The notes below the pieces were generated by a model. That model saw nothing but the letters and a program-made list of their open reading frames with translations. It did not search any database and had not been told where the DNA came from. Positions 17,526-58,868 of a stretch of DNA of 64,000 nt are shown piece after piece; position 1 is the stretch's first letter, and each line of letters starts with the position of its first letter. Where the stretch lies: the sequence record NC_052655.1. One strand, written 5' to 3'. Source of the DNA: Escherichia phage alia. The position numbers and the translations under genes were made by a program.

Positions 17526-17531
17526 CACATA

Positions 17532-17553
17532 AACCCGCTTCGGCGGGTTTTCT
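17532..17553 (+). terminator. rho-independent terminator
   Basis: AACCCGC-TTCG-GCGGGTT hairpin followed by TTCTTG. Confidence 0.5.
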
Positions 17554-18309: not shown

Positions 18310-19122
18310 TTATTTAGTCAAATGATCTTCTATCATTTTTATGAAAGCAGGATTGCTAAAAGCATCTGCGGCTTTTTCTCGATAAACAAAGACTCCTCTA
18401 TCTTCGTAAAGAAGAGTTTCTTCGTAATTAATTCCTGGGTTAACAACAATCATTTTTGTACCCATATTAAGTGCAGGGAATAATTCCCAATTAAAATTAA
18501 TAACTTGGTTTGAACATCCTACTACAACAACCAAATCTTGCATGGTCAAAGTATCAAACAAGTGAGCCATATCTGCATACAAAGGTGCAGCCTCACCAAA
18601 AAATACAACATTAGGCTTCACCCAGTTATAATCATCTATGTTTATATTGTTGTAACCGATATCTACCAGTGTCTTGTAATCTCCAGGATGCATACGATAA
18701 ACTACTTCAGGAAGATATCCGTGCACGTGAATAACAGAATTTCTGTCTACACCTGCTCGCTCTAGTAGATCATCAACGTTTGTTGTCAAGTTTACTATTT
18801 GGTTAGGATATTCCTTAAACCACTTTGCTATTTGAATATGTGCAGCATTAGGTTGTACATCTTTAAGCTCAACACGTCTTTTGTTATAAAATTCGTGTGT
18901 TTTGGCATACAAATCCATACCGTTTTCGTCTACACCACCAACCACTGGAAGATCTGGAGATGTTCTCACACGATAACCTGCTTGGAAAGCTCCAATATCG
19001 CAGATCTCTTCTAAATCATATTCTTCCCATAAAGCACGACCACTATCTGTGTCTGTTCGGAATGTTCGAATCCCACTGTCTGCACTTAAACCTGCGCCAC
19101 TGACAAAAATTACTCTTCGCAT
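18310..19122 (-). CDS. Sir2-family NAD-dependent deacylase/ADP-ribosyltransferase-like protein
   Basis: N-terminus VIFVSGAGLSADSGIRTFR matches the Sir2 Rossmann signature GAGIS-x3-GIP-x-FR; 270 aa. Confidence 0.7.
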   Translation of the reverse strand: MRRVIFVSGAGLSADSGIRTFRTDTDSGRALWEEYDLEEICDIGAFQAGYRVRTSPDLPVVGGVDENGMDLYAKTHEFYNKRRVELKDVQPNAAHIQIAKWFKEYPNQIVNLTTNVDDLLERAGVDRNSVIHVHGYLPEVVYRMHPGDYKTLVDIGYNNINIDDYNWVKPNVVFFGEAAPLYADMAHLFDTLTMQDLVVVVGCSNQVINFNWELFPALNMGTKMIVVNPGINYEETLLYEDRGVFVYREKAADAFSNPAFIKMIEDHLTK

Positions 19123-19664
19123 TCAATATCCTCTTCGTAATCATCATACCAAGAAGATGCGTCGTAACGCTCTTCCTCTTCGAAATCCCAATTAATTTCT
19201 ACTCCAAAATCTAAAAACAATTTAACAATGTTTTCTGTAGAGTAGTATTTATCATAAGCATTAGCTAGTTCCCAATACTTATCACTCAATTTTTTATAAT
19301 TAGGATCATTGTAATCATGAGCTACTTTATCACCATAATCATACATCTCTTCTTCAGCTTTAAGCATAGCTTCTGGTGTAAGAAGATTAGGGAACGGACG
19401 ATTTCTTTCTTTTAACTTAGAAGCAATCCAGTTTGCAACATTCGCCACTTCACCATCTCGATTATCACCTAAACAACTTGCATAATCTCCATCTTCGTAA
19501 GTGCCTAAATCCCCACTGACTTCATGTACAATAGATGAATACGATCCACACGTTTCACAATCTGAAAAAGTGTCTACTGTTGTAATATCAATAGATAAAA
19601 CTGGTAAAGCCATAGCTTCTTTCACACAAGCCTCCTCATATAATAACATATCATCAAAACCCAT
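19110..19664 (-). CDS. hypothetical acidic protein (184 aa)
   Basis: ORF track 19110..19679 (TTG start); ATG 19664 with GGAGGA RBS chosen. Very acidic, Tyr/Asp/Glu-rich. Confidence 0.5.
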   Translation of the reverse strand: MGFDDMLLYEEACVKEAMALPVLSIDITTVDTFSDCETCGSYSSIVHEVSGDLGTYEDGDYASCLGDNRDGEVANVANWIASKLKERNRPFPNLLTPEAMLKAEEEMYDYGDKVAHDYNDPNYKKLSDKYWELANAYDKYYSTENIVKLFLDFGVEINWDFEEEERYDASSWYDDYEEDIECEE

Positions 19665-19682
19665 ATATCCTCCAGACAAATA

Positions 19683-19718: not shown

Positions 19719-20330
19719 TTATACCAGACTTTTAAGGTACTTGTCAAGGGCTTCTTGATCACCTTGACAAACATAGCAACGGAAGTCTTGAGCAGAAGGT
19801 TCTTTATCCTCTTCCCAATCCCAATAGACAGTACCTTTATAGCGTGAGCCTGGGAACTCGAAGTATGCTACATGGGTAATATGGTGTGGGCCACCCCAAA
19901 ACTCTGTAAAAGTAAATTGAGGATACGCTGCTTTAACTGTATTTTCAAACCAAGTTTTACGATCTAATGCTTCGTTTATAAAATAAGCATGGCGTTCCAT
20001 TTCATCCCAATCTTTCCAAACGCATTTTTCATCCAGAGAAAAAACAAAATTCTCACTGTTAAAATCGTCTGTATCTGATTCCAAAATATCATAATCATGT
20101 GCGCTAGGTATCCACCATCCAGCTTCTAATAGGGCTTTCGCAGGTACAAAACCTTTTTCAGCGTATTGATCAAATTCTTTTACTCTACGTACAGTGCAGT
20201 ATTCATCTTCACCACCAATATCCAGTATACAAGCGCCTTTGCGTCTTGCTGCAAGACCATGTGTATCAAAAACTACAACACTACCTTCACCATCTTCACG
20301 ATCTACTTGATATGCAACTTTTTGAGTCAT
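19719..20330 (-). CDS. hypothetical protein (203 aa)
   Basis: ORF track. Confidence 0.55.
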   Translation of the reverse strand: MTQKVAYQVDREDGEGSVVVFDTHGLAARRKGACILDIGGEDEYCTVRRVKEFDQYAEKGFVPAKALLEAGWWIPSAHDYDILESDTDDFNSENFVFSLDEKCVWKDWDEMERHAYFINEALDRKTWFENTVKAAYPQFTFTEFWGGPHHITHVAYFEFPGSRYKGTVYWDWEEDKEPSAQDFRCYVCQGDQEALDKYLKSLV

Positions 20331-20453
20331 ATTACCCCCAATGTATATGGGAAATTAACCAAAAGATAAATTCCCAAAAACACCAACCAAGAAAAGTTAA
20401 TGGAATTATAAAAGCTATCAGAGCAGTCTTCCAGCCTTTCCACAATGTTTCCA

Positions 20454-21443
20454 TCATTCCTCCATACACTTAAGAATATGTGCAATGACAGGTATAGTCC
20501 AACCATTACCTAACATCTTATATGCTTGTGTGTTACTACTCACTTTAAAGTAATCATCAGGAACACCTTGCAAGCGGCAACACTCTTTAACCGTTAACTT
20601 TCTATAATGTACACCTTCACTCAATTTTTCAAAGGCATCCAGATATCTTCCAGGTGGAATGTAAGCTAATAGTACGTCTTTCGGCACAGTCGTGAGGCAA
20701 CGAGTTTTTTCACTGTCCTGAACTTCCAAGCAATGTACCAAACGATCAGTTTTAGATGTACTACGTTTGCCATTTTCATTAATTCTACGCCCATATATTG
20801 CTGCTGGATAAAAAACCAGTTGTCTGCGACTCTTTTCAAAATATTGTTCTATATTACCACCTTTGGCATAATTTGCATCTATGCAATAAGCCTTATCCCT
20901 GTCTACAATACTATCATCTTCAATGATATCTTGCAACACTTCATTGGTAATATCCCAAGGTTTTATTTCCCAATTGCACCAGTATAAACGTTGTCTATTC
21001 TGTGCAGTGAAATCTGCGGAGTTAATGAATACGGGATCAACACCTAAGTAACTTGTGATCACGTTTTCCCACTCCACCTTCATCTTAACGTTTTCAAGCA
21101 TGAACTTAACATTAGGGTTAAACTTTTTAATATGTTCAAGAATTTCAACATATTCAAAGAACAGTTTAGATCGCGGATCTTGAAAGTTCAAACCCTTACC
21201 AGAAGAAGAGAAGCCTTGGCACGGGCTACCACCTAACAAAAGATCAATTTCTCCCCACGGGATATCCCATTCTCTCCATTTTGTAACATCACCTAATTGA
21301 ATAATATCTGGAAAATTGGCTTGGCTTTCAGCTATGGCAAATTTATCCAATTCTGAGGCATAATACTTATCTACTTCAATACCTGCACTTTTTAGTGCAA
21401 GCATTCCTCCTGACATACCATCAAAAAGACTTAAAACTTTCAT
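20454..21443 (-). CDS. DNA cytosine-5 methyltransferase
   Basis: Motif I LSLFDGMSGG (FxGxG), motif IV GGSPCQGFSSSG (PCQ), motif VI ENV, motif VIII QNRQRLYW and motif X GNGWTIPV seen in order in the translation. Confidence 0.85.
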   Translation of the reverse strand: MKVLSLFDGMSGGMLALKSAGIEVDKYYASELDKFAIAESQANFPDIIQLGDVTKWREWDIPWGEIDLLLGGSPCQGFSSSGKGLNFQDPRSKLFFEYVEILEHIKKFNPNVKFMLENVKMKVEWENVITSYLGVDPVFINSADFTAQNRQRLYWCNWEIKPWDITNEVLQDIIEDDSIVDRDKAYCIDANYAKGGNIEQYFEKSRRQLVFYPAAIYGRRINENGKRSTSKTDRLVHCLEVQDSEKTRCLTTVPKDVLLAYIPPGRYLDAFEKLSEGVHYRKLTVKECCRLQGVPDDYFKVSSNTQAYKMLGNGWTIPVIAHILKCMEE

Positions 21444-21856
21444 TATTGCTTCTTCTCCTTAACACTAGCTGGTAATTCTGCCTTAAGGCAGAAGTTTAAA
21501 CGGTAAGCCTCATTTTCATTTAAAAGTACAGATTCACACGACAACCAGAACAAGAGATCCTCAATACTAGGACTGTGAAGCCAACAGTGCAGAAGAGAAT
21601 GTTGTTCTATATCAATGTAATTTAGCAACAAGCCTTGTAAGGCGTAACTAGTTCCTGTCGTTTTTGCTTTTTCAAGGATGATATTGTGTTTACTAACAAC
21701 CTTCTTTCTAAGACCAAACCATTTACTAACAACAACAGTTTCTTCTTGTAGTTGTTTTCTTATTTTCTCACATTCTTTAACTACAATCTGCATCTTATCC
21801 ACTGCTGATTGAAGTTGTTCTTTTGTTGGGTTTACAAAATAGTCACTATAATACAT
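21443..21856 (-). CDS. hypothetical protein (137 aa)
   Basis: ORF track; ATGA-type overlap with the MTase gene. Confidence 0.5.
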   Translation of the reverse strand: MYYSDYFVNPTKEQLQSAVDKMQIVVKECEKIRKQLQEETVVVSKWFGLRKKVVSKHNIILEKAKTTGTSYALQGLLLNYIDIEQHSLLHCWLHSPSIEDLLFWLSCESVLLNENEAYRLNFCLKAELPASVKEKKQ

Positions 21857-21879
21857 GCTAATCTCCTCTTCTGTTTTTG

Positions 21880-21935
21880 TGTAGTTTATTCGAAAAGACT
21901 GGTGTTGTCAACAAAAAACCCGCCGAAGCGGGTTT
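21880..21935 (-). promoter_or_regulatory. intrablock terminator hairpin followed by candidate minus-strand promoter
   Basis: Minus-strand AACCCGC-TTCG-GCGGGTT plus U-run (plus 21911-21935), then minus-strand TTGACA, 17-nt spacer, TAAACT within plus 21880-21910. Confidence 0.4.
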
Positions 21936-21938
21936 ATA

Positions 21939-22196
21939 TTATTCTACAGGAATTTCTTCACCAAGAGAAACTTCCAAACGGAATGCTTTACTTTCAATAC
22001 ATTCACTACCTTTTAAGAAATCGAATTGCACTATAGACTGACTTAATAGAATAGATAGAATCACATCGCAATCTTCACTAGGAGCCAGATGTTTGTATTC
22101 TTCCTTCAAGGTAACATCATAAAAACATAAATCCCCTACTCCTAGTTCATCCCATCCTTCCCACGCATCTACAAAGTTAAACTCTAAACCTTTCAT
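21939..22196 (-). CDS. hypothetical protein (85 aa)
   Basis: ORF track. Confidence 0.5.
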   Translation of the reverse strand: MKGLEFNFVDAWEGWDELGVGDLCFYDVTLKEEYKHLAPSEDCDVILSILLSQSIVQFDFLKGSECIESKAFRLEVSLGEEIPVE

Positions 22197-22717
22197 ACAA
22201 CCTCCTCGTAATTGTTATTGTGTTTTACTGTCTCAACATACAATAAAGATTCCATCTGTAAGACATTACCAGAAATAATAAACCCATAAGCCATTTCAGA
22301 TGTGTCTATATCATACGCCCCGTCTTCCGGTTTGGCAAAGTGTAAAACTATTTCATCTGGGTTTTCTTCATCCCATATTTTAGAAATTTTCCGAACCAGA
22401 ATATTAGCTAAAATAGTTGACATTCGGGATAAAGCTGTATCCTCGTATCTTTTAAAACCTAACCAATAGAGATTAAGAATTTCTACTTCTTCTTGTGTTA
22501 AGTTTTTGTCTAAAGTAATCAGATCTGTAGGATACATCGTTTTTGTTGAATCTACTATTACAAAACCTGGAGTGTTATGAAAAACAATCTTAACTTTATC
22601 ACGTATGAAGTTTAAACCTTGTGCCTCAACTATGTATTGTATTGTAGGTACAATATCGTTTGTTACATCAATAAAGCTATCTTTAATGACGCTTATATTA
22701 TTTCTGGACAAGACCAT
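22193..22717 (-). CDS. hypothetical protein (174 aa)
   Basis: ORF track. Confidence 0.55.
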   Translation of the reverse strand: MVLSRNNISVIKDSFIDVTNDIVPTIQYIVEAQGLNFIRDKVKIVFHNTPGFVIVDSTKTMYPTDLITLDKNLTQEEVEILNLYWLGFKRYEDTALSRMSTILANILVRKISKIWDEENPDEIVLHFAKPEDGAYDIDTSEMAYGFIISGNVLQMESLLYVETVKHNNNYEEVV

Positions 22718-23276
22718 TCTCCTCTAAAATAGGTTTAATAAATTCGAAGATTTGTTTTTTACTTTTACCTCGAATATTAAAACAAGGAACATTAAACTTT
22801 TTAGCCAACATCCAAGCTGTTCTTGTACCACCTAAAGGATCTCCATTTTTATCTGTATTTGCACAAGCTAAAAGAAAACAAGATGGTTTTGGATTCTCAA
22901 GATCTCTGCCAAGAACTTGGTGGATATTCCTTTGATGTAATTTTTTAGCACCTTGGGATAATCTGTCCCAAGCTGGATGCAATTCTTTTGCATATTGCAA
23001 AGTTAGAGCATAGTTCACACTGTCTGGTCTGTCAAGAACAATAACCTCTCCCTCTATCTCATTACCTTTAAACGAAGGCCAAGGAATGTATATTTCTTTC
23101 TTTGTATTGTTTCCACTATCATATACCCCGCATTCAAATGCGGAATCTGCACCTTCTGCTTTACCAGATCGCAAAATGAACCATGTAGATAACCATTTTG
23201 CAACAGCTACCATAGTGTCCCATTCTTCGTCTGTAATATCTCTGCTACCAACACCTGTGTAGAATAAATCGCTCAT
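22698..23276 (-). CDS. SLOG/DprA-like Rossmann-fold protein
   Basis: ORF track 22698..23393; start moved to the internal ATG (MSDLFYTGVGSRD...). GxGSR...SGxAxGADxA pattern resembles the DprA/Smf/LOG (SLOG) nucleotide-binding fold. Confidence 0.45.
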   Translation of the reverse strand: MSDLFYTGVGSRDITDEEWDTMVAVAKWLSTWFILRSGKAEGADSAFECGVYDSGNNTKKEIYIPWPSFKGNEIEGEVIVLDRPDSVNYALTLQYAKELHPAWDRLSQGAKKLHQRNIHQVLGRDLENPKPSCFLLACANTDKNGDPLGGTRTAWMLAKKFNVPCFNIRGKSKKQIFEFIKPILEENGLVQK

Positions 23277-23286
23277 GGTTTTCTCC

Positions 23287-23607
23287 TTAACAAGTAATAT
23301 TAGGAATAATACTGGGAGTAACAATTGGAGTAATAGGGTACGTAAACCAAGGGCTTCCAATTTCCCAAGGACTATAAGGTGTACGAGGATCAAATGGAGG
23401 CGTTACTTGAGGCTTTTTCCAAATCTCCGCTAGTTGTTTCTTCCATTTATCCCTTGCTGTATCGTTATCTTCATCCAACTGTTCGTCATTATCTTTTATT
23501 TCTGATTTTGGAAATAAAAGCTCTTTGACTAACTCAACGTCTTCCGTTTCAATAGTAGTTTCTTTCGTAATATTCCCTACCGTCTCTTTAATTGTGACTT
23601 TATACAT
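23287..23607 (-). CDS. hypothetical protein (106 aa)
   Basis: ORF track. Confidence 0.45.
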   Translation of the reverse strand: MYKVTIKETVGNITKETTIETEDVELVKELLFPKSEIKDNDEQLDEDNDTARDKWKKQLAEIWKKPQVTPPFDPRTPYSPWEIGSPWFTYPITPIVTPSIIPNITC

Positions 23608-24353
23608 TAGTCCTCCTCTAAAGTAGAATAAAATTGTAACGTATTTGAATCATCAAAATATGCAAAGGTTAAATTACCATTGAAGCAAGATCCTGTATCC
23701 ATATATACCCTATTACTGCTAATTACAGGTTTAGGAACATAAGAATGCCCGTGAAATACATAATCTACTCCTGAAACTCTAGGAAGAAGAATCCCTTCAA
23801 GGGCGCAATCTATCATATCACGATCCCACATTAAAGATTCTGTGAATCGAGATACTTGTTCTTTATTCATATTCGAACAAAATGGCAAAACTTCCGTCAC
23901 TGGTAGATGTTCCAAAACTGAAGGATATCCTCCGTGAATAAAGCCTAGTTTCATATTACGATAATTGACAACAAGTACAACAGGTAAGTCTTCTAGCATC
24001 AAAGCAAGAGCAGTTGCACCTTCTTCTCCACACTCGTTTAGAACTGTATGGCCTCCGTTCTGAAACCAACATTCGTAATATCGCCTATCACCTTCTAGCA
24101 ACCCTTTAATCATCATATCTTCGTGATTTCCACGAATAGCATAGCGATTTAGCTTTCTGGTGAATTCAACGGTACAACGAAAATTCTGCTTGCCGCGATC
24201 TGTAAGATCTCCTAAAGATACAACAACATCTTGATCTCGAATACCTAAAGTATTAACACCTTTCTGGTATAAATCAAAGCAACCATGTAAATCACCAATA
24301 ATAAACAGGTCTTGATCATCTTTTACACTAATTTCTTGATATACTAGCATCAA
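23607..24353 (-). CDS. Ser/Thr protein phosphatase (calcineurin-like metallophosphatase, PPP family)
   Basis: GDLHG, GDLTDRG and GNHE metal-binding motifs in canonical order and spacing. Confidence 0.8.
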   Translation of the reverse strand: MMLVYQEISVKDDQDLFIIGDLHGCFDLYQKGVNTLGIRDQDVVVSLGDLTDRGKQNFRCTVEFTRKLNRYAIRGNHEDMMIKGLLEGDRRYYECWFQNGGHTVLNECGEEGATALALMLEDLPVVLVVNYRNMKLGFIHGGYPSVLEHLPVTEVLPFCSNMNKEQVSRFTESLMWDRDMIDCALEGILLPRVSGVDYVFHGHSYVPKPVISSNRVYMDTGSCFNGNLTFAYFDDSNTLQFYSTLEED

Positions 24354-24676
24354 CTCTCCTCAAAATCCATAAGTATAAAGATATTAACTTTACCTTCTAT
24401 ATTATGTTCTACAACAAGATCTGCAAATTCTTTGTAGGCTTTTTCTTCTATTTGTTCAATGTGAGACGCTACATCTTTGTATATAGCGTCACCATCTACT
24501 TTAACAAGGAGGAATAGAGATCTTACCTCAATCTCTTTATTTTTGCGGGGTAGAAAATCGACGGCTTCTTGTATACGCCAGCCGAGATACCCTGGAGTCC
24601 TTTGAATATCCTCCAAATGACTTTCTAAGATTTCCCTTCCTTTGTCTATTAAAGCCTGTTCTGTCGTTATTTTCAT
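24350..24676 (-). CDS. hypothetical protein (108 aa)
   Basis: ORF track; ATGA overlap. Confidence 0.5.
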   Translation of the reverse strand: MKITTEQALIDKGREILESHLEDIQRTPGYLGWRIQEAVDFLPRKNKEIEVRSLFLLVKVDGDAIYKDVASHIEQIEEKAYKEFADLVVEHNIEGKVNIFILMDFEES

Positions 24677-24686
24677 CCCCTTCTCC

Positions 24687-25259
24687 TTAATGTGTTAATG
24701 AAACTGCGTAACTAAACACAGGTTCAGATATTACATCGGCTACAGTAATAAAAACGTCCTCATCTTGCGTTGTTTCTACACGACATACAGTTACACCATT
24801 TACTACAAATTCAACGCAATGTGGAATATCTTCACAAACGAATGTAGTGTAAGTAACACCCAAAGCATCATACAAAGATTTAACAGTATTTGCAAGTGCC
24901 GCAGTTTCTTCTTTTTCTGAGACAATGAATGCTGTAACAACAAGATTGTTTGCATAGTTTAGACTGTCCTCTATAGCCAATGATTTACAAGGTAGTAATG
25001 CAAAATATTTACCTGGTTTAATCAGACCTGCTTCCCATTGATTCAAAATTGCCTGGGATGGTTTAGTAATATAAAACAGATTTTCACTTGGGTTATCAAT
25101 ATTACTTCTGGCGATACAACGTGAAGGATTATTAATATCAAACACATGATCAAAATCTACACAAACTGGTAAACTGAAAGGTGTAAATTTTTTACCTAAT
25201 AATCCTACTGCTGACAATATGTTTGCTGTGCTTATCTTCCCGTTAAAAGCTAAACGCAT
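24687..25259 (-). CDS. hypothetical protein (190 aa)
   Basis: ORF track. Confidence 0.55.
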   Translation of the reverse strand: MRLAFNGKISTANILSAVGLLGKKFTPFSLPVCVDFDHVFDINNPSRCIARSNIDNPSENLFYITKPSQAILNQWEAGLIKPGKYFALLPCKSLAIEDSLNYANNLVVTAFIVSEKEETAALANTVKSLYDALGVTYTTFVCEDIPHCVEFVVNGVTVCRVETTQDEDVFITVADVISEPVFSYAVSLTH

Positions 25260-25270
25260 ATTTAACTCCT

Positions 25271-25474
25271 TTAACTAGCAACCGTAACTTCCGAACTTTC
25301 TTCTTTCGTACTGTCTACGATATGCCTGGTGGCAATATACGAGACTTGCCAGTTACCATCTGGTGTAGTCTCAATAAGTACCCTATCTACTTCGAGAAAA
25401 TGCAAAAATTCAACCATCGCTCGCTTCGATAGGAATTGTTTTTTAACAGTCTCCTCAAAAGATTGAACTGCCAT
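25271..25474 (-). CDS. hypothetical protein (67 aa)
   Basis: ORF track. Confidence 0.45.
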   Translation of the reverse strand: MAVQSFEETVKKQFLSKRAMVEFLHFLEVDRVLIETTPDGNWQVSYIATRHIVDSTKEESSEVTVAS

Positions 25475-25483
25475 GTTTCCTCC

Positions 25484-26146
25484 TTATTTAATATTCAATT
25501 TTGCACAAAGACGTTGTACCGCTTTGGCATCGAACAAACTCCCACGAATAGTTCTCTTTCCTGATTCATTCAGATGCTTTGCAATCGTCATATATGGCGT
25601 TTTACAAGCTCTGTATGCAACTAAAGAATCTTTTAAAGAAAGTGCAAACTCTTTTGAGCGTTTTGCTTCTTCCGTTTTCGTATAATCTGTTCTTTTGTAT
25701 TTAGGGTTTGCTGCACCAAGAAGCGTTCCCTTCGCTTTTGCTACCTTAAGGCTCTTCTTAACACGATCAGATATTGCACGAGCCTCTTCTTCTGCCAGAA
25801 CTGCTAAAATATTTATTATCATATTTTCAGCGGAGGGCATAGTGGCTATCCGTACATTAATCATCTCTAACAAGGTTGCAACAGAAGCTGTGTTACGTCC
25901 AAGACGGTCAACCTTAGCAACAACAAGTGTAGCACCTGTTTCTTTGCAAAGATTAACAGCTTTTACAAGCTCTCTACGTTGCTTCCAATCGCCTTTACCA
26001 GAATAAAACTCTGCAAAGCTACCTACAATAGTATAATTTTCTTGTGAATCCAGGAAGCGTTGGATATCTGCTTCCTGTGATTCTATACCATACTGGTTGC
26101 CTTGTTGTTTCTTCTTAGAAAGTCGATGATACAGTACAAACTTCAT
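25484..26146 (-). CDS. serine recombinase (resolvase/invertase family) with C-terminal HTH
   Basis: ORF track 25484..26200; start moved to ATG 26146 (AGGAGG upstream). Catalytic YHRLSKKKQ (Y-x-R-x-S) and ATLVVAKVDRLGRN motifs. Confidence 0.7.
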   Translation of the reverse strand: MKFVLYHRLSKKKQQGNQYGIESQEADIQRFLDSQENYTIVGSFAEFYSGKGDWKQRRELVKAVNLCKETGATLVVAKVDRLGRNTASVATLLEMINVRIATMPSAENMIINILAVLAEEEARAISDRVKKSLKVAKAKGTLLGAANPKYKRTDYTKTEEAKRSKEFALSLKDSLVAYRACKTPYMTIAKHLNESGKRTIRGSLFDAKAVQRLCAKLNIK

Positions 26147-26203
26147 AATACCCTCCTGTTCTGTTGCAGGAAGTATGCACGACCTTAACGCTAAAGTCAA
26201 CAG

Positions 26204-26407
26204 TTAAGTAGTGGTAATATCATCTTCTTGAATATCAGGGTCAACTTCTGCAAAGATAGCCTCTACAGGAATTTCTTCACCTGCTATTCTAGAAAGAAGC
26301 ACTGAACCAATAGCTTTTGCGTGTTCTTCGGATTCCGCATAAACATTAGTTCCTGTGTCTTTTTTCTTAGTTTCGTTAAAATATACCAGATAGTAATTGT
26401 ATGCCAT
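26204..26407 (-). CDS. hypothetical protein (67 aa)
   Basis: ORF track. Confidence 0.45.
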   Translation of the reverse strand: MAYNYYLVYFNETKKKDTGTNVYAESEEHAKAIGSVLLSRIAGEEIPVEAIFAEVDPDIQEDDITTT

Positions 26408-26658
26408 TATTCATCCCAATCGTTGTTGCGAGCACTTTCAAGAACCTTGACAACTTCTGCGTACTCTACAGCTAAACCAGCACACACTTCAGCTTGTTTT
26501 GCAATTGCTTGCTTAAAGAACATAGCGATTGCAACACTCTGTGTTGTGTGAATGTTATCTGCTTTAGTTGATACATGAAGATCAAAATCTTCTTCATCAA
26601 AGGTGAGTTCCATAGTAACAATAAATTTCTCGGTCATAAAAATGCTCCTCTTAAACAA
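26407..26658 (-). CDS. hypothetical protein (83 aa)
   Basis: ORF track. Confidence 0.45.
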   Translation of the reverse strand: MFKRSIFMTEKFIVTMELTFDEEDFDLHVSTKADNIHTTQSVAIAMFFKQAIAKQAEVCAGLAVEYAEVVKVLESARNNDWDE

Positions 26659-27160
26659 AATAGAAAGGTTGAGTTAAACCCAGCCTGTTTTTTGGGTCGT
26701 AGACGTACCAAGCATATGCTGTCTTATCAGTACCACCTGCAACAAAAGATGGTCGTTCAGAAAGAACAATCAAATTTGTTGGTGGGTTCTGTTTATGGAA
26801 TTCCCTTCGTTTAATAGACTCTAGGAATCCAAGACGCAACAAGTATATGCAAACGTCTGCTTCTTTTAAGCTCTTTTGCAAGAACTCAAGTGCAAGTCTG
26901 AATGGTGGATTTGTGATTATAATATCCGGCTTAGTATGCCATTCGTGGTTAAAATAATCCTTCCCCTCTTCTAACTCACAATATTCTGATCCTTCTGGAA
27001 AATGTTGATAAATTGCAGCAGCAGCGCCTTTACACGGTTCTGCAAAAATAAAACCTTCTTCTTTAAGGTTATTAAAATCTATTACACTAAATAATGCATT
27101 TATACATTTTTGTGGAGTAGGATAGTAATCAGTTGGTGGACGATCATACTTATTTGCCAC
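26651..27160 (-). CDS. DNA N6-adenine (or N4-cytosine) methyltransferase, small
   Basis: DYYPTP near N-terminus and TNPPF (D/NPPY/F catalytic motif IV) in a 169-aa protein. Confidence 0.65.
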   Translation of the reverse strand: MANKYDRPPTDYYPTPQKCINALFSVIDFNNLKEEGFIFAEPCKGAAAAIYQHFPEGSEYCELEEGKDYFNHEWHTKPDIIITNPPFRLALEFLQKSLKEADVCIYLLRLGFLESIKRREFHKQNPPTNLIVLSERPSFVAGGTDKTAYAWYVYDPKNRLGLTQPFYFV

Positions 27161-27578
27161 TACTTAAAATCTCCTCTTTTGTGATTTCAGGGTTTTCTTC
27201 AAAAACCATAATATCTCTTAAGAATGTTAATTCTTCCATAGATACTGGTATTGTATCTTCTTCTGTTTTTCGTTTACATAAGTCGTCAAGAAAGTTTTTA
27301 ACGCTTTCTGACACATCGTAAAATTTCAACAGTTGATAATCACAGGAGGAGATCCTATCTAGTTCTAACATTCTTTCTAAGATATTTTCTGTGTTGCCGT
27401 ACAACACACGAACTTCTCCGAAAGGGTTGACTAAATATTGTGAAGTTCTGAACCATCCCTTTTTAGATACAGTGTAACGCTGTTCTGCTAAACTTTCAAT
27501 AAAATTTTTAGCCCTTTTACAGTTTTGTTCTAAAGAGTAGTAGGCTTTTTCTACAAAGATTACAGGTACTGGTAACAT
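27150..27578 (-). CDS. hypothetical protein (142 aa)
   Basis: ORF track. Confidence 0.5.
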   Translation of the reverse strand: MLPVPVIFVEKAYYSLEQNCKRAKNFIESLAEQRYTVSKKGWFRTSQYLVNPFGEVRVLYGNTENILERMLELDRISSCDYQLLKFYDVSESVKNFLDDLCKRKTEEDTIPVSMEELTFLRDIMVFEENPEITKEEILSSGK

Positions 27579-27617
27579 ATCTCCTCCTAATAACCCCGTG
27601 AGGGGGTTTATGTTAGA

Positions 27618-28271
27618 TTAATTATCAGAGGATACTTTATCAAGTTTTTCAGAGACTGTCAATACTTTTTCTTGTGATTCTTTCATTTCTGCTAAAATAC
27701 TTTCAGCTTCATCACTATCAGGATCACCAGTCAACAGCATACTAATTAGTTGCTCCTTGCTGAAGTTCAGAATATCTTCCGCTGTTAGCTCCAGTTGTTC
27801 TTCGATCTCTTCGACAAAAGTTTCACCGCCTGAAAAAGCATCTCGTAGTTTTGCAACTTCCATCGCTTCTTCTGGGGTTGCCCCAGCGTCTAAAGCTGCT
27901 AAAGCAAAATCTGCCCCACTACCAACAGCATAGTAATCTTCAGTTAAAGGATATGCTCGCGTTGGATTATTACCCTCGTGCATATAAATTTTACCGTCTG
28001 GGTGAACAACCAATGCCACAAACTCTTCATCTTCTTTATCAGGATCTGACTGGATCACCAAACCTGGGATTGTCTCTTGTGCTGCCTGGCACTGTAAGTT
28101 TTGTTCGAACCAAGAAAAGAAAGTCAGGATAGAAGACAGACGTCCTGCACCACCAACAAGGTAATCCCCAATTTTACGCACTTTCTTGAAATTTAAAGTG
28201 TCTACTCGATTACCTACTGTTACTTTACCATCAGATAGAATTTTGTTATGTGTTGCAATAATTGTTGTCAT
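27618..28271 (-). CDS. HslV-like N-terminal-threonine peptidase with acidic C-terminal extension
   Basis: Begins MTTIIA (Thr2 as candidate nucleophile, as in HslV MTTIVSV); KKVRKIG and AVGSGADFALAA align by eye with HslV KKVRRL and AIGSGGPYAQAA; acidic tail of about 50 aa. Confidence 0.6.
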   Translation of the reverse strand: MTTIIATHNKILSDGKVTVGNRVDTLNFKKVRKIGDYLVGGAGRLSSILTFFSWFEQNLQCQAAQETIPGLVIQSDPDKEDEEFVALVVHPDGKIYMHEGNNPTRAYPLTEDYYAVGSGADFALAALDAGATPEEAMEVAKLRDAFSGGETFVEEIEEQLELTAEDILNFSKEQLISMLLTGDPDSDEAESILAEMKESQEKVLTVSEKLDKVSSDN

Positions 28272-30250: not shown

Positions 30251-30517
30251 TTACTCCGCAATCTGAGCCATGAATTCACGTAGTTCAGAAAAACCTCCTA
30301 CGTGGGTTAGCTGTTCACCATCTTCCACAAAAATCTGAGGGAATGTGCGTGGTAGAACACCTGTTTTCTCTAAAACCAGATTCTGAAGCTGATCTAAAGA
30401 ATAGTCTTCATCTAAGGTAAGATATTTAAAATCCTGTTCACGCTGTTCCAGTAGAATCTTAGCGTTAGTGCAGAAAGGACAATTTGGTTTACCGTAGATA
30501 ATAAAATTCATTTTCAC
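30251..30517 (-). CDS. glutaredoxin/NrdH-like redoxin
   Basis: Active-site CPFC at residues 13-16 in an 88-aa thioredoxin-fold-sized protein; located beside the nucleotide-metabolism genes. Confidence 0.8.
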   Translation of the reverse strand: MKMNFIIYGKPNCPFCTNAKILLEQREQDFKYLTLDEDYSLDQLQNLVLEKTGVLPRTFPQIFVEDGEQLTHVGGFSELREFMAQIAE

Positions 30518-31344
30518 TCCTTGTTTAAAAGTATAGTTAAAGTTCTTACAATACCGCTATCAACACTTCGCGGATTTAAAGTAGGATCTGTTTTTAAATA
30601 AGATGTTGCTGGTCTGACTGCTTTAGAATTATAGGTTGAAGCAGATACAGGATTAACTGTAACAGATAAATCTATAACAAGAAATATCTTACGTGCAAAA
30701 TCATACCAAGAAATATAATCTGCACCTGCATAGTGTACAATTTTACTATTTACACCATCTTTTACAAGTTTAAAAATTGTTTCTGCCAGATCAGGTGCAT
30801 AAGTAGGACATGATAAATGATCACATACTACATTAAATTCTTTTTGACCACCGTTGTAGCGTTCCAACATAGTTTTCAAAAAGTTATGTCCAAATTCACT
30901 ATAAACAGAAGCTGTTCTGATAATAAGTGCTGTAGGACAAACTGTTTGTACTAAAGTTTCACCTAATTGTTTACTGTAACCGTAGGTGTTCAAGGGGTTT
31001 GTTTCACTATCTTCTGTGCCAGCAACATGCCCATCAAAAACATAGTCTGTTGAAATATGTACAAACTGTATCAGTAAATCATTACATGCTTTGGCAATGT
31101 TTGTTGCACCGTATGCATTAACATTTATACAGGTGTTAACATCTTCTTCAGCTTTATCTACTGCTGTGTAAGCCGCACAATTCACAACAACATCAGGCAC
31201 ATGCTGTACAAGACTATTCATAACATCTTTAAAGTTGGTAATGTCTACATCACTTGCTTCAATCAAAATAACATCTTCGGGCGCAACTTTTGCCAAAGAC
31301 TGTCCTAATTGACCTTTTGAACCAAAGATTAAAAATTTTGTCAA
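30514..31344 (-). CDS. rmlD: dTDP-4-dehydrorhamnose reductase
   Basis: N-terminal FLIFGSKGQLGQ Rossmann motif, length 276 aa, last gene of the rmlB-A-C-D order. Confidence 0.8.
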   Translation of the reverse strand: MTKFLIFGSKGQLGQSLAKVAPEDVILIEASDVDITNFKDVMNSLVQHVPDVVVNCAAYTAVDKAEEDVNTCINVNAYGATNIAKACNDLLIQFVHISTDYVFDGHVAGTEDSETNPLNTYGYSKQLGETLVQTVCPTALIIRTASVYSEFGHNFLKTMLERYNGGQKEFNVVCDHLSCPTYAPDLAETIFKLVKDGVNSKIVHYAGADYISWYDFARKIFLVIDLSVTVNPVSASTYNSKAVRPATSYLKTDPTLNPRSVDSGIVRTLTILLNKE

Positions 31345-31895
31345 AATATGATCTCCTTTAGTGTTTTGGCTTGCTGATCTTTTTGTGACAAGATAGGTTT
31401 AAAATTAATATCATTAAAGATTAAATCAAAACCCCAATCTATATTGATATCTGGATCATTCCACGCAAGACTACACTCTGAAGTCGGATCGTAATATTCT
31501 GTACATTTATATTCAAAATCAGCAATGTCGCTAATCACAACAAAGCCATGAGCGAAACCAGGAGGAATCCAAAATTGTGTTTTATTCTTTTCAGATAAGA
31601 GAACACCTACCCATTCTCCAAATGTTGGACTACCAACCCTAATATCTACAGCAACATCATAAACTTCACCACGAACACAACGTACTAACTTCCCTTGTGG
31701 GTTTTTCTTTTGAAAATGAAGCCCACGTAGAACTCCTCGAATAGAACGTGAATGGTTATCTTGGACAAAGTTTTGTTTACCTATGTATTGATCATATAAA
31801 GCCTGATTAAAACTTTCTAAGAAAAAACCACGTTCATCTCCGTAAACGTCAGGTTGAATGATCAACAAATCTTCGATTTTTGTTGCTTGAATCAT
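31341..31895 (-). CDS. rmlC: dTDP-4-dehydrorhamnose 3,5-epimerase
   Basis: 184-aa cupin; ERGFFLESF and LRGLHFQ motifs characteristic of RmlC. Confidence 0.85.
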   Translation of the reverse strand: MIQATKIEDLLIIQPDVYGDERGFFLESFNQALYDQYIGKQNFVQDNHSRSIRGVLRGLHFQKKNPQGKLVRCVRGEVYDVAVDIRVGSPTFGEWVGVLLSEKNKTQFWIPPGFAHGFVVISDIADFEYKCTEYYDPTSECSLAWNDPDINIDWGFDLIFNDINFKPILSQKDQQAKTLKEIIF

Positions 31896-31906
31896 TTAAT
31901 TCCCCC

Positions 31907-32776
31907 TTATTTTAATTTAAGTAAATACTTACCGTAGTCTGTTTTACTTAAAACCTCTCCAGAACTTTTTACAGAGTCTAAAGTAATCCATTCATTTTTA
32001 AAAGCAATCTCTTCTAGGCATGCAACCTTCATACCTTGTTGCTTTTCTATTGCATGAACAAATTGAGATGCTTCCATAAGACTTTCATGTGTTCCTGTAT
32101 CCAGCCAAGTGAAACCTCTTCCTAGTTTACAGACACGTAAAGCCTTTTCTTTCCAGTACATCTCATTTATATCTGTAATCTCTAACTCCCCTCTAGCAGA
32201 AGGTTTAACGCTCTTAGCTTTCTGTATAACAGAATTATCGTAAAAGTACAAGCCTGTAATTGCATAGTTGCTTTTTGGTGCTTTTGGTTTTTCCTCAATA
32301 CTCACCACTGTACCTTCAGAATCAAACTCAACAACACCAAATCTTTCAGGATCATTTACGTGATACCCAAAAATATTAGCTCCACCATTCTTTTCAATAT
32401 GTTCTTTAGCAGAATCTAAAATGCTACCAAAACTCTGACCAAAGAATAAATTATCACCTAGCACAAGTGCTACAGAATCTTCACCAATAAAGTTCTCACC
32501 AATAATAAAGGCTTCTGCTAAACCTTTTGGACTGTTCTGTACTGCATACTGTAGGGAAACACCAAAAGAAGAACCATCACCTAAAAGATTTACAAAATTA
32601 ATTTGATCTTCTGGTGTTGTAATTATTAGTATTTCCCTAATTCCAGAAAGCATTAGGACAGAGAGTGGATAATAAATCATAGGCTTATCGTAAATTGGTA
32701 ATAGTTGTTTACTAACCCCTTTAGTAACTGGGTAAAGTCTTGTTCCGCTACCACCTGCTAAGATAATACCTTTCAT
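31907..32776 (-). CDS. rmlA: glucose-1-phosphate thymidylyltransferase
   Basis: N-terminal [18 protein letters not shown] (G-x-G-T-R-L nucleotidyltransferase signature), 289 aa. Confidence 0.9.
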
Positions 32777-32784
32777 ACTCCTCC

Positions 32785-33774
32785 TTAAACTTTATTTTCC
32801 CACCACTCTTTGTTATCTACATACCAATCAATGGTTGAATAAAGTTTTTCTTCAAATGTGCCTTTAGCTTTCCACCCTAATTCCTTTTCGATCTTATAAG
32901 GATTCACTTCATATCTCAGATCATGCCCAGGTCTATCTGTAACCATCTCAATTAGGCTACAAGCATCTGTTTCAGATGGATACACCGCATCCATATAATC
33001 ACAAATCATATAGATTACATCAATATTAGTTCTAGGGTTTCTGCTCCCAATATTATATGTTTCTCCAGATTTGCCTTTAGTTACTACTAGGTGTAATGCT
33101 TCTGCGTGATCGTCAACGTATAACCAGTCTCTTACTTGAAGACCATTGCCATAAACAGGGATTGGTTTATTCATCAAGATATTTGTTATCGTTTTAGGTA
33201 TTAGTTTTTCTGGATGATGATATGCTCCAAAATTATTTGAACAATTTGTTAGAACTGTCGGAATACCATAAGTACGATGCCACGCTCTTACCAAATGATC
33301 GCTTGCTGCCTTAGATGCAGCATATGGACTACTTGGCTTATAAGGATTCTGTTCTGTAAACGGATAATCCCCCTCTTCCATATCACCATATACTTCATCT
33401 GTTGAAATATGATGGAACATTTTAAGATTTGATTTATCTCCCATTAAACGAACAGCTTCTAGGAGATTAAATGTCCCAACAATATTTGAATTTATAAAAA
33501 CACTCGGTGATGCTATTGAATTATCTACGTGACTTTCTGCTGCAAGATGCATTATATAATCTGGATTAACATCTGCCACAATCTTAGCAGTTAACTGCGC
33601 ATTTGTCAAGTCAACACGACAAAACTTTACATTGGGTGTTTCTGATAAATTTCTAGGGTCTGAAGCGTAACCCCATTTATCTATAACGTAAATATCATTT
33701 TTAGTATTTTTAGCCAGGAAACGAACTACCGCACTTCCAATAAAGCCTAAACCACCTGTTACTAAGTATTTCAT
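32785..33774 (-). CDS. rmlB: dTDP-glucose 4,6-dehydratase
   Basis: N-terminal [12 protein letters not shown] Rossmann motif; SDR Tyr/Lys catalytic pair (YAASKAA); 329 aa. Confidence 0.85.
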
Positions 33775-39330: not shown

Positions 39331-40302
39331 TTACCATTTTGTATGGTTAGTCAAAAGTTGACGATGTTGAATCCAACCACAGAAGTTTCCACTCCACAAA
39401 CGATGTTTACGATCCATATGTGTAATACCTTCTTCCCAAGAAGTAGGGAACGGAGGAATATTAATACCACCTTTCTGTTGTTTTAATCCTGACAAATCCA
39501 TTTCTTTCATTGGCGTTGCCTGGTGTTCAAACGGAGATGCATGTACCTTTTGTCCAGACAGCAAACGAGAATAGATATCCAATGCTTTATCTTTAGTATC
39601 ATTCAATTTACGATAACTTACCTGAGCGCAACAAGAAGCTGAAATAGCTTTTGCTTCCTCTTCTGTCAACATTTTCTCGTTGGAGAAGGTTTCACCTAAG
39701 AAATAACGGATCATACCAGTTTCTGGATCTCGATCACGATTAACGTAAGGTGTATGCCATTCCCCTGGGAAAAGAAGATATGGTTCAGAAGATTCATACA
39801 GTTTTTTAATTTCTTTAGCAAGAGCCTCAATAGTAGGATCTGCATCAGCATCTACGCGCAACCACAAGAAGTTTTCTAGCTCTGTAGCGGTGACTACAGT
39901 CTTCATACGCTGGAATGGTTCTAGTAGGCGGTTTGCAACCTGTTTATGATAACCAGCAAGGGCAAACTCTTCTGCAAAACGTGCAGCACTTAGTGCAGCC
40001 AAGTCCCACCATTCTTTTGCAGTGTAACCTGCATCAATCAGGGCATCGTGATCTGTGCCTTTATCTTGCATACCTGGTTGGTTAGCACCAAAACGATAAG
40101 GACGTGCTGGAGATTGCCGTACCATTTCAATTAGAGTTTTAACAGGGATAGCTCGACTTGATGCAGCATTACGAGAAAACAAACGATGCGTCATCAATTC
40201 AGAGTGAATGATTCGGGGATATTCAAGTTCAAAGGTAACAATATCCTTACCTTCAGATGTTTGAGAGTGTGCAATAATTTTTGCTGAAATAGAGTTTGTC
40301 AT
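39331..40302 (-). CDS. ThyX-like flavin-dependent thymidylate synthase family protein
   Basis: THRLFSRNAASSR segment fits the ThyX signature (R/T)HR-x7-S-x-R; 323 aa, longer than typical ThyX; lies next to tdk and nrdAB. Confidence 0.6.
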   Translation of the reverse strand: MTNSISAKIIAHSQTSEGKDIVTFELEYPRIIHSELMTHRLFSRNAASSRAIPVKTLIEMVRQSPARPYRFGANQPGMQDKGTDHDALIDAGYTAKEWWDLAALSAARFAEEFALAGYHKQVANRLLEPFQRMKTVVTATELENFLWLRVDADADPTIEALAKEIKKLYESSEPYLLFPGEWHTPYVNRDRDPETGMIRYFLGETFSNEKMLTEEEAKAISASCCAQVSYRKLNDTKDKALDIYSRLLSGQKVHASPFEHQATPMKEMDLSGLKQQKGGINIPPFPTSWEEGITHMDRKHRLWSGNFCGWIQHRQLLTNHTKW

Positions 40303-57263: not shown

Positions 57264-57271
57264 TATTCAAG

Positions 57272-57347
57272 GTTCCATAGCTCACTGACGAGAGCGCACA
57301 CCTCATAAGTGTCGAGGGCAGGGATTGTAACCCTGGGGAACCACCAT
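57272..57347 (+). tRNA. tRNA-Met/Ile2 (anticodon CAT)
   Basis: Hand-folded cloverleaf: acceptor GGTTCCA/GGGAACC (one mismatch), anticodon loop CTCATAA, 3' CCA encoded. Confidence 0.55.
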
Positions 57348-57377
57348 TTAAAAGGAGGTGCTATGCATCTCCTATAT

Positions 57378-57463
57378 GCAAGTGTGGTGGAATTGGTGAT
57401 ACACATTGTGCTTAAAACGCAACGCTTAAATGCTTGAGGGTTCGAATCCCTCCACTTGCACCA
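57378..57463 (+). tRNA. tRNA-Leu (anticodon TAA)
   Basis: Acceptor GCAAGTG/CACTTGC, anticodon stem TTGTG/CGCAA with loop CTTAAAA, long variable arm, T-loop GGTTCGAATCC, CCA encoded. Confidence 0.7.
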
Positions 57464-57478
57464 ACACCTAAAAATATC

Positions 57479-57507
57479 TTGACATTTACTTAGTTTTTTG
57501 TTATAGT
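57479..57507 (+). promoter_or_regulatory. sigma70-like promoter inside the tRNA cluster
   Basis: TTGACA 57479-57484, 17-nt spacer, TATAGT. Confidence 0.5.
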
Positions 57508-57518
57508 CGTTATGAAAA

Positions 57519-57600
57519 CGGGGTGTATCTCACCTGACTTCTAATCAGGCGTTAACCGAGTAATTGGAGTATGCAGGTTCGAATCCTGTCACCCCGGCCA
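57519..57600 (+). tRNA. atypical tRNA-like gene (possible anticodon TCT)
   Basis: Perfect acceptor CGGGGTG/CACCCCG and T-arm GCAGG-TTCGAAT-CCTGT with CCA, but only one internal hairpin (CCTGA-CTTCTAA-TCAGG) and no recognisable D-arm; isotype uncertain. Confidence 0.4.
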
Positions 57601-57618
57601 AAAAGTTTTAAAAACTAC

Positions 57619-57647
57619 TTGACAAGCAAGATAGTTTTATGTTAGAT
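57619..57647 (+). promoter_or_regulatory. sigma70-like promoter inside the tRNA cluster
   Basis: TTGACA 57619-57624, 17-nt spacer, TTAGAT. Confidence 0.45.
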
Positions 57648-57663
57648 TTAAAGTATGATAACG

Positions 57664-57753
57664 GGAAGGTAGGGCGCAGCGGTGCGCAACCAGGTTTGAA
57701 CCCTGGCCCATTGTAGCGATACGGTGATGGTTCGACTCCATTATCTTCCTCCA
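57664..57753 (+). tRNA. tRNA-Ser (anticodon TGA)
   Basis: Acceptor GGAAGGT/ATCTTCC (G-U at pair 6), anticodon stem CCAGG/CCTGG with loop TTTGAAC, long variable arm, T-loop GGTTCGACTCC, CCA encoded. Confidence 0.65.
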
Positions 57754-57798
57754 AATTCAATTAGTAACAGATTCAGGTTGTTTTGAATAATTAAAAAT

Positions 57799-57884
57799 GG
57801 TAGATTGGTGAAATGGTAGCCACAACAGTTTGCTAAACTGTCGTCGGAAACGGCGTGTAGGTTCAAGTCCTACATCTACCGCCA
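57799..57884 (+). tRNA. tRNA-Ser (anticodon GCT)
   Basis: Acceptor GGTAGAT/ATCTACC, anticodon stem ACAGT/ACTGT with loop TTGCTAA, long variable arm, T-loop GGTTCAAGTCC, CCA encoded. Confidence 0.7.
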
Positions 57885-58054
57885 AGTTATCTTTAATGTA
57901 GCTTGTTGCTCTTAGTTGCTTGGTGTAACTTTTTGGAAGAATGGCTGCAACCATCTTACTTTAATAGAGTAAACTTTCGGCAGATGGCCCCCACCATCTT
58001 ACCGATACCTCATAGTCAGTGGTGCGAACACTGGCTATTTTAAAGATAATTTAT

Positions 58055-58129
58055 ACATCGTTAGCCAAGCGGTAAGGCACTTGACTTTTAATCAAGGGAG
58101 CGAAGGTTCGAATCCTTCACGATGTACCA
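58055..58129 (+). tRNA. tRNA-Lys (anticodon TTT)
   Basis: Acceptor ACATCGT/ACGATGT, anticodon stem CTTGA/TCAAG with loop CTTTTAA, T-loop GGTTCGAATCC, CCA encoded. Confidence 0.65.
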
Positions 58130-58134
58130 AACAC

Positions 58135-58221
58135 GTAGGTATCGCATAGCGGCAATTGCTGGAGACTGTAAATCTCCTGCCCTTCGGGGCTTCGTTGGTT
58201 CGAGTCCAACTACCTGCACCA
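58135..58221 (+). tRNA. tRNA-Tyr (anticodon GTA)
   Basis: Acceptor GTAGGTA/TACCTGC (one G-U), anticodon stem GGAGA/TCTCC with loop CTGTAAA, long variable arm, T-loop GGTTCGAGTCC, CCA encoded. Confidence 0.65.
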
Positions 58222-58228
58222 AATTAAA

Positions 58229-58313
58229 GATGGATTGGCCTAGTGGTTGGGCGACGGACTGTTAATCCGTGAACGAAAGTTCTAGCAAGGTTCAAATCCT
58301 TGATCCATCGCCA
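58229..58313 (+). tRNA. tRNA-Asn (anticodon GTT) with unusually long variable region
   Basis: Acceptor GATGGAT/ATCCATC, anticodon stem ACGGA/TCCGT with loop CTGTTAA, extra hairpin GAAC-GAAA-GTTC in the variable region, T-loop GGTTCAAATCC, CCA encoded. Confidence 0.55.
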
Positions 58314-58392
58314 AATAGTGCTTGTAGAGTTAATAGAAACCTCTAGAATTTTCTAGAATTGTAGGTATCAAACCCTACCAAGCAAATATTTT

Positions 58393-58467: not shown

Positions 58468-58489
58468 ATTTAACTCTAAAGGAGTGTAT

Positions 58490-58813: not shown

Positions 58814-58827
58814 ATATTAAAAGCCTC

Positions 58828-58856: not shown

Positions 58857-58868
58857 TAATATTGTTAA

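Follow-up and report, generated by a model that had tools for sequence, protein, structure and literature searches.

Two genes for DNA methyltransferases (MTases) of different chemical classes lie 5.2 kb apart on the minus strand of a 64,000-nucleotide stretch of Escherichia phage alia (sequence record NC_052655.1), which as a whole is referred to below as the window. A first-pass annotation of the window had proposed such a pair, 5 kb apart, and both open reading frames (ORFs) are present at the exact coordinates. The two genes and the motifs that characterize their products are the following:

20454..21443, minus strand: C5-cytosine DNA methyltransferase, 329 amino acids, with a Shine-Dalgarno sequence (AAGGAG) upstream of the ATG start codon
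21216..21224, minus strand: Pro-Cys-Gln of motif IV of the C5-MTase (translates to PCQ), in which Cys75 is the catalytic nucleophile
26651..27160, minus strand: predicted small N6-adenine DNA methyltransferase, 169 amino acids, with a GTG start codon and a GAGGAG Shine-Dalgarno sequence; orphan
26900..26911, minus strand: NPPF of motif IV of the small MTase (from the translation), the catalytic tetrapeptide of amino-MTases, preceded by T83
27113..27130, minus strand: DYYPTP of the small MTase (from the translation), the counterpart of motif X (FYTP/TP) in N6-MTases of the gamma class, including the invariant T15

Based on the evidence presented below, we consider it quite probable that this lytic phi92-like coliphage encodes two orphan MTases, namely a minimal N6-adenine enzyme that likely acts on GATC and a canonical C5-cytosine enzyme. 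Over 50 complete genomes of coliphages of the phi92-like group (genus Justusliebigvirus in the Stephanstirmvirinae) are 98-99% identical in nucleotide sequence to positions 20000-28000 of the window. The near-identical records include those of SD2, VEcB and the BASEL phage PaulScherrer/Bas60, and in the annotated ones the genes and their positions agree with those of the window. Because the two MTase proteins recur at 98-100% identity in over 50 genomes of related phages, their genes are far from being chance ORFs. The orphan status that had been ascribed to them was borne out as well: no gene flanking either MTase gene, including the ORFs of 137 and 142 amino acids described in the last section, gave a PADLOC match or matched a nuclease or defence model.

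It should be noted that both genes were already known, as deposited proteins that are 99-100% identical are annotated as cytosine and N6-adenine MTases. In addition, the orphan MTases of a phage of the same genus have been discussed in a previous paper (PMC12210895), the family of the small MTase has an experimentally characterised member, and nothing in this pair of genes is unexpected for a specialist. The interest that is left concerns how an enzyme of 169 amino acids that consists only of a Rossmann core, and has no target recognition domain (TRD), reads a sequence, and what the specificity of the DNMT3-like C5-MTase is.

The small adenine methyltransferase and its Bas51 homologue

The DYYPTP and TNPPF motifs from which the 169-amino-acid ORF had been taken for an amino-MTase were both confirmed by translation. 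The class assignment that had been drawn from these motifs fared less uniformly: the protein reaches no curated family at threshold, but it matches phrog_799, annotated as 'DNA methyltransferase', at 1.7e-56, and it is homologous to a characterised enzyme of phage Bas51. Phage and metagenome data contain at least 237 homologues, which are about 160-200 amino acids long, and 50 of them were aligned. Invariant in this alignment are T15, E41-P42, T83-N84-P85-P86, R136-P137-x-F139 and D145, and nearly invariant are P16, C43, G45, E62, D68, D79 and F87. The order of the motifs is that of the gamma class, with X (TP) followed by I (EPCxG), an acidic motif II, IV (NPPF) and a VIII-like RPSF. A profile built from the 50 homologues gave weak but coherent matches to HsdM, DpnA, EcoRI_methylase, N6_Mtase and Eco57I, and its alignment pairs the DYYPTP and NPPF of the small MTase with the QYFTP and NPPF of the HsdM subunit of StySJI. 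A match to EcoRI_methylase was obtained with 46 of the 50 family members, although this one, like all the other Pfam matches, is below threshold.

The motif order X-I-II-IV (NPPF/Y)-VIII is common to the small MTase and gamma-class enzymes such as M.TaqI, HsdM and the MTase domains of MmeI and BseCI. However, whereas the latter carry a C-terminal TRD or a specificity subunit, the small MTase has no separate TRD or specificity subunit, is less than half their size, and stays below every Pfam gathering threshold of the class (PF02384, PF13651 and PF07669). Its distant homologues are also orphans in phage-like contexts, and no partner gene is conserved across these contexts. An AlphaFold2 (AF2) model of high confidence (predicted local distance difference test score of 91) contains only a class I Rossmann core, which fills all 169 residues. 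The nearest folds are those of N6-adenine MTases, and since DNA and RNA enzymes are interleaved among the matches of the fold search, the fold supports an amino-MTase without favouring one of the two substrates.

Evidence concerning the substrate comes from Bas51, an rV5-like Vequintavirus in which escape from two retrons went along with mutations in the gene for its 'N6 adenine methyltransferase' (Nakamura et al., PLoS Biol 2025, PMC12548924). In that study, engineered D69G, D79G and T83P mutants escaped retron defence, and native nanopore sequencing revealed N6-methyladenine (m6A) at GATC throughout the genome, nearly all of which was gone in the T83P mutant. Methylation of the retron DNA was proposed to be the trigger, and the methods of the paper mention m6A at GTAC besides GATC (PMC12548924). 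Bas51 corresponds to phage WalterGehring, and its enzyme to bas51_0176, a protein of 177 amino acids that has D69, D79 and T83 as published. bas51_0176 and the small MTase (177 versus 169 amino acids) are 47% identical over essentially their full length (E 8e-46), have the same motif set and fold class, and are both orphans in large lytic coliphages. Residues D69, D79 and T83 of bas51_0176 align with D68, D79 and T83 (the threonine of TNPPF) of the window protein. The gene order PhoH - protease (ClpP-like or HslV-like) - MTase is also common to the two. On the other hand, bas51_0176 belongs to another phage subfamily and differs in its N-terminal and recognition-loop sequences. The small MTase is also syntenic in Phapecoctavirus, where it is 87% identical, and it is a core, syntenic orphan gene of the Stephanstirmvirinae/Vequintavirinae group.

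By analogy with the Bas51 homologue, the substrate of the small MTase would be DNA and, extrapolating at 47% identity, its target is most likely GATC. The enzyme would transfer a methyl group from S-adenosylmethionine to the N6 of adenine in double-stranded DNA, and could in this way keep the fast-replicating phage DNA fully Dam-type methylated, for which host Dam alone would be insufficient. Recognition of the sequence would have to rely on short loops, above all on the one that follows RPSF. This loop is singled out by some of the homologues (P0057, P0061, P0073, P0117 and others), which have a cysteine-rich (CG..C.CG), zinc-ribbon-like insert of about 25 amino acids right after RPSF; that this is where the TRD of gamma-class enzymes attaches suggests that the loop is the recognition element. 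Compared with classical Dam (alpha-class, PF02086; for instance E. coli Dam and T4 Dam), the motif order and class of the small MTase are unrelated, but the product (G-m6A-TC) is probably the same and both are orphans. No match to PF02086 was found for the small MTase. Weak, sub-threshold matches to the phage Dam family PF05869 (best 0.006) were seen in 13 of the 50 homologues, but the window protein was not among these. If the GATC specificity holds, the resemblance to Dam would reflect convergence and not membership.

Several observations weigh against a GATC-specific DNA enzyme at this locus. We infer from sequence the activity and specificity in Justusliebigvirus of this MTase, as of the C5-MTase. 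At E<=0.01 the small MTase matches nothing in Pfam or NCBIfam, phmmer gave no match among PDB sequences, its best Pfam score, for EcoRI_methylase (PF13651), is 13.4 bits against a threshold of 26.4, and its top structural neighbour is the RNA m6A MTase PH1948/METTL5. Moreover, an identity of 47% leaves room for a different specificity, and one distant homologue, in a metagenomic phage, adjoins classical Dam-type MTases, from which it follows that specificities probably vary within the wider family. Finally, the observed/expected ratio (O/E) of GATC is 1.0 in all three genera that carry the small MTase, while most other 4-bp palindromes are depleted, but this tolerance is weak evidence for GATC methylation because host Dam alone gives the same pattern.

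Two other assignments of the small MTase have to be considered in this light. Motifs of the NPPF type are also found in enzymes of the RsmC, RsmD and TrmN6 types, and together with the lack of a TRD and the presence of 15 tRNA genes in the window this could indicate an N6-adenine or related amino-methyltransferase acting on rRNA or tRNA instead of DNA. We regard this as very improbable, given that the syntenic Bas51 homologue is needed for GATC m6A on phage DNA (PMC12548924), that the protein shares with HsdM and other DNA MTases of the gamma class a TP motif X located ahead of motif I, and that the most consistent of the sub-threshold Pfam matches are to families of DNA MTases. A DNA N6-adenine MTase that has a motif other than GATC, or a relaxed specificity, in Justusliebigvirus is a possibility of some weight, even though we consider it unlikely. 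Besides the limited identity to the characterised enzyme and the family member next to Dam-type MTases, it would be in line with the difference in the putative recognition loop after RPSF (VAGG-TDKT versus QSNGRTDGQ) and with the toxicity of the Bas51 enzyme on expression in E. coli (PMC12548924), since a Dam+ host would not be expected to be harmed by an enzyme confined to GATC. However, the positional orthology across related phage subfamilies with the same host, the unreduced GATC frequency in the three genera, and the conservation of all catalytic residues and of all residues with a published loss of function argue in favour of GATC.

Two observations concern variation at the locus of the small MTase. 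In Citrobacter phage Tr1 (OR515479.1:144276-144782) the locus is annotated along with a homing endonuclease, and in several Phapecoctavirus records the tblastn alignment starts at residue 17, a possible sign that the N-terminus varies or that the locus has taken up an insertion.

The C5-cytosine methyltransferase and its target

The C5-MTase had been described as having the full motif set of its class, and this proved to be correct. The protein matches PF00145 over residues 1-327 (E 3.4e-43; 148.7 bits, threshold 22) and TIGR00675 with 140.1 bits (cut-off 100.65), and all the canonical motifs were located in the canonical order: I (residues 6-13, LFDGMSGG), IV (71-79, GGSPCQGFS), VI (115-119, ENV), VIII (148-155, QNRQRLYW), IX (281-298) and X (310-319, GNG). 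An alignment of 39 homologues has 59 invariant columns, which include G71-S79 (GGSPCQGFS), ENV and GN. The protein has the two-domain fold of C5-MTases and its catalytic core is DNMT3-like, but the eukaryotic regulatory domains of DNMT3A/3B are absent. The target-recognition region comprises about 120 amino acids (residues ~159-279), of which residues 177-208 are modelled with low confidence. This region has no detectable sequence similarity to any enzyme of solved structure. The closest known enzymes to the C5-MTase as a whole are type II C5-MTases of bacteria and phages (M.HaeIII, M.HhaI, M.MpeI) and the catalytic domain of DNMT3A/3B. The enzyme is predicted to write 5-methylcytosine (5mC) at a short motif.

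The C5-MTase is present at 95% identity or more in 53 Justusliebigvirus records, and the next-best matches, which include Vibrio phage ICP1 and jumbo coliphages, among others, do not exceed 52% identity. It is missing from the complete Phapecoctavirus and Vequintavirus genomes compared, even though the block flanking it is syntenic gene for gene. The C5-MTase gene and the 41-amino-acid ORF that overlaps its stop codon, which has no tblastn match in Phapecoctavirus and is missing there along with it, therefore form a genus-specific variable slot. Two further MTase genes were noted in these genera. Justusliebigvirus has a third MTase, specific to the genus, that lies outside the window; it is a beta-class N6/N4 enzyme (PF01555, 2.2e-30) with DPPY near its N-terminus (VEcB L004:36717-37472, minus strand). 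Phapecoctavirus and Vequintavirus share a gamma-like candidate of 267-287 amino acids (YYTNP..EPSAGxG..GNPPFG; L007:41133-41933 and L012:19625-20485), which has no Pfam match.

The possible target of the C5-MTase was approached through genome-wide site counts, in which Justusliebigvirus VEcB was compared with Phapecoctavirus and Vequintavirus genomes, and through C-to-T changes. Tolerance of CCWGG and GCGC is uninformative on the target because it is equal in genomes with and without the C5-MTase, and the CpG ratio is similar in the three genera (0.71, 0.76 and 0.68), which makes CpG depletion equally uninformative as a signature of deamination. Codon effects (GAC, CGA) dominate the 1,430 C/T polymorphisms found among related genomes, which contain no convincing motif hotspot. 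These proxies gave no target, a point that weighs against the reading proposed here for the C5-MTase.

Two targets in particular can be weighed against these data. The 'Dcm-like' annotation in BASEL records would imply a Dcm-type enzyme that methylates CCWGG and guards against EcoRII-type restriction. CCWGG occurs 85 times in the window and, with a genome-wide O/E of 0.91, is not an avoided site, and CmCWGG is not an RmC site and would escape McrBC in K-12 hosts. Small coliphage 'Dcm' enzymes have also been assumed to target CCWGG (bioRxiv 10.1101/2023.08.16.553469). Such a target is improbable in our opinion. Despite the 'Dcm-like' GenBank annotations, the protein is outside the E. coli Dcm subfamily, as it scores 29.9 bits on the subfamily model NF007772, for which the cut-off is 710, and this score comes from the C-terminal motifs at residues 280-328. 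Its TRD is unlike that of any solved enzyme by detectable similarity, CCWGG is not a C-to-T hotspot (0.96x), and the same O/E of 0.91 in Phapecoctavirus, which does not have the gene, means that the tolerance is not attributable to the C5-MTase. The other target is GTAC, which shows the strongest contrast between the genera: Justusliebigvirus has 427 sites (O/E 0.77) and Phapecoctavirus 134 (O/E 0.31), a difference of z ~9. Methylation of GTAC by the C5-MTase, or by the third, beta-class MTase, would explain the relaxed avoidance in Justusliebigvirus. We are doubtful about this explanation too, because three or more MTase genes distinguish the two genera and the contrast cannot be assigned to one of them. 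In addition, GTAC is still mildly depleted in Justusliebigvirus, the C-to-T excess at GTAC is merely 1.3x (p = 0.08), and GTA(m5C) is an RmC site at which cutting by McrBC would be expected, yet relatives of the phage were isolated on MG1655.

Methylation, site avoidance and the rml genes

The first-pass annotation had proposed that the two MTases protect the phage against host restriction, and that the rml and nucleotide-metabolism genes add to the modification of its DNA. As for protection, a narrow, site-specific role is plausible, but general protection is not. Thus, in plating assays phi92-like phages were 'exceptionally susceptible' to restriction-modification (RM) systems, seemingly without effective protection despite their putative dTDP glycosylation machinery (Maffei et al., PMC8594841). 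Because the clade is so sensitive to restriction, any protective benefit would be narrow and limited to a few sites. Palindrome avoidance, and not modification, dominates the anti-restriction signal of the sequence. The window contains no AAGCTT, CTGCAG, GGATCC, GGTACC, GAGCTC or GGWCC site. Genome-wide, AAGCTT is absent where 47 sites are expected and 113 are present in Phapecoctavirus, and GGWCC occurs twice against 69 times in Phapecoctavirus. GGYRCC likewise occurs once in Justusliebigvirus and 38 times in Phapecoctavirus. Conversely, it is Phapecoctavirus in which GTAC and CTSAG show by far the stronger depletion. Sister genera that infect the same host species have, in other words, evolved different spectra of restriction-site avoidance.

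The likely benefit of each MTase is that it would protect one specific class of sites from the cognate type II enzymes. Most of the other sites are dealt with by palindrome avoidance. Narrow methylation and a very strong, genus-specific avoidance of palindromes would then be two anti-restriction strategies in one genome. Methylation may also have a price. Retrons are triggered by phage MTases of both the Dam and the Dcm type (PMC12548924; bioRxiv 10.1101/2023.08.16.553469), and hence both MTase genes may be costly as well as beneficial.

With respect to the rml genes, RmlD, RmlC, RmlA and RmlB are encoded at 30514-33774 on the minus strand, all of them above the NCBIfam equivalog cut-offs, and make up a complete dTDP-L-rhamnose pathway. 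The location of this pathway at a distance of 3-6 kb, within the transcriptional block that also holds the MTase genes, would be compatible with the MTases being one layer of a hypermodification in which dTDP-rhamnose serves to glycosylate the phage DNA, an idea that has already been floated (bioRxiv 10.1101/2020.01.19.911818). We consider this highly improbable, and the proposed contribution of the rml and nucleotide-metabolism genes was not upheld. In addition to the susceptibility of the clade to RM systems in spite of its rml genes, the strong avoidance of restriction sites would be needless for hypermodified DNA. Furthermore, no match to a DNA glycosyltransferase or hydroxymethylase was found among the ORFs scanned, a result that does not include a search of the whole window aimed at glycosyltransferases. 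The long 'thymidylate synthase' (39331-40302, minus strand, 323 amino acids) was considered as a hydroxymethylase that feeds rhamnosylation and was rejected. It has a weak likeness to FAD-dependent ThyX (35 bits, cut-off 87.9), and it is a divergent protein of the ThyX family, not a ThyA-like one of the dUMP/dCMP hydroxymethylase family.

Of the multiple modification that had been suggested for the virion DNA, the part that involves the two MTases can be retained, since judging from the genes the DNA probably carries both m6A and 5mC; the part linked to the rml genes cannot. The probable presence of both marks in a widely isolated and therapy-relevant group of phages affects restriction mapping, nanopore base-calling and cloning, as well as the host range on strains with methylation-dependent nucleases (DpnI-like, McrBC, Mrr).

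Put in more general terms, and only tentatively, the family of 169-177 amino acids may be among the smallest sequence-specific DNA MTases. It would consist of a TRD-less gamma-type core that recognizes GATC by surface loops, would be convergent with Dam, and would be a core gene in two subfamilies of coliphages. In the phage studied here it would be accompanied by a DNMT3-like C5-MTase whose TRD has an uncharacterised specificity, possibly tied to the relaxed avoidance of GTAC.

Gene neighbourhood of the two methyltransferase genes

Both MTase genes belong to a long minus-strand block that, according to GC skew, extends from about 18 to 53 kb. The block also holds Sir2, DprA-like, phosphatase, PhoH, endolysin and RmlABCD genes, together with genes for ribonucleotide reductase, thymidylate synthase, exonucleases and a ligase. 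The features immediately next to the MTase genes are:

20332..20457, minus strand: ORF of 41 amino acids, overlapping the stop codon of the C5-MTase gene by 4 nt; annotated in SD2 and PaulScherrer
21443..21856, minus strand: ORF of 137 amino acids (phrog_16551), directly upstream of the C5-MTase gene, its stop codon overlapping the MTase start
21915..21937, minus strand: intrinsic-terminator-like hairpin (CCCGC-TTCG-GCGGG followed by TTTT), just upstream of the 137-amino-acid ORF and the C5-MTase gene
27150..27578, minus strand: ORF of 142 amino acids (phrog_15078), overlapping the start of the small MTase gene by 11 nt

The ORF of 137 amino acids is probably co-transcribed with the C5-MTase gene, and the hairpin upstream suggests that the two form a separate transcription unit; the counterpart of this ORF in Phapecoctavirus is only 24% identical. 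The hairpin, a perfectly self-complementary element of 23 nt (AAAACCCGCCGAAGCGGGTTTAT and its complement), exists in two identical copies on opposite strands, 4.4 kb apart, at 17529-17551 and 21915-21937. The former copy is at the end of a plus-strand block and the latter upstream of the C5-MTase unit. At the other MTase gene, translational coupling between the 142-amino-acid ORF and the small MTase is possible. The syntenic counterpart of this ORF in Phapecoctavirus, which is 46% identical, also adjoins the small MTase there.

A serine recombinase/DNA invertase (PF00239, 9.8e-22) is encoded between the two MTase genes of this lytic phage, at 25484-26146 on the minus strand. No inverted repeats flank it within 17-30 kb, where the sole perfect repeat pair is that of the terminator hairpins. 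Its homologue in Phapecoctavirus (57% identity) is located elsewhere and in the reverse orientation, and the gene therefore appears to be mobile.

Unusual accessory genes are found around the MTase genes at 18310-19122, 19110-19679, 24687-25259 and 27618-28271, all on the minus strand. Their products are a member of the Sir2 family, two truncated proteins that resemble aminoacyl-tRNA synthetases, both of them assigned to phrogs annotated as 'histidyl tRNA synthetase' and one of them 190 amino acids long, and an HslV/proteasome-like peptidase, whose counterpart at the same position in Vequintavirus is ClpP-like. The 15 tRNA genes of the window are clustered at 57271-59758 on the plus strand, with tRNA-Met, tRNA-Leu and tRNA-Ser represented twice each.

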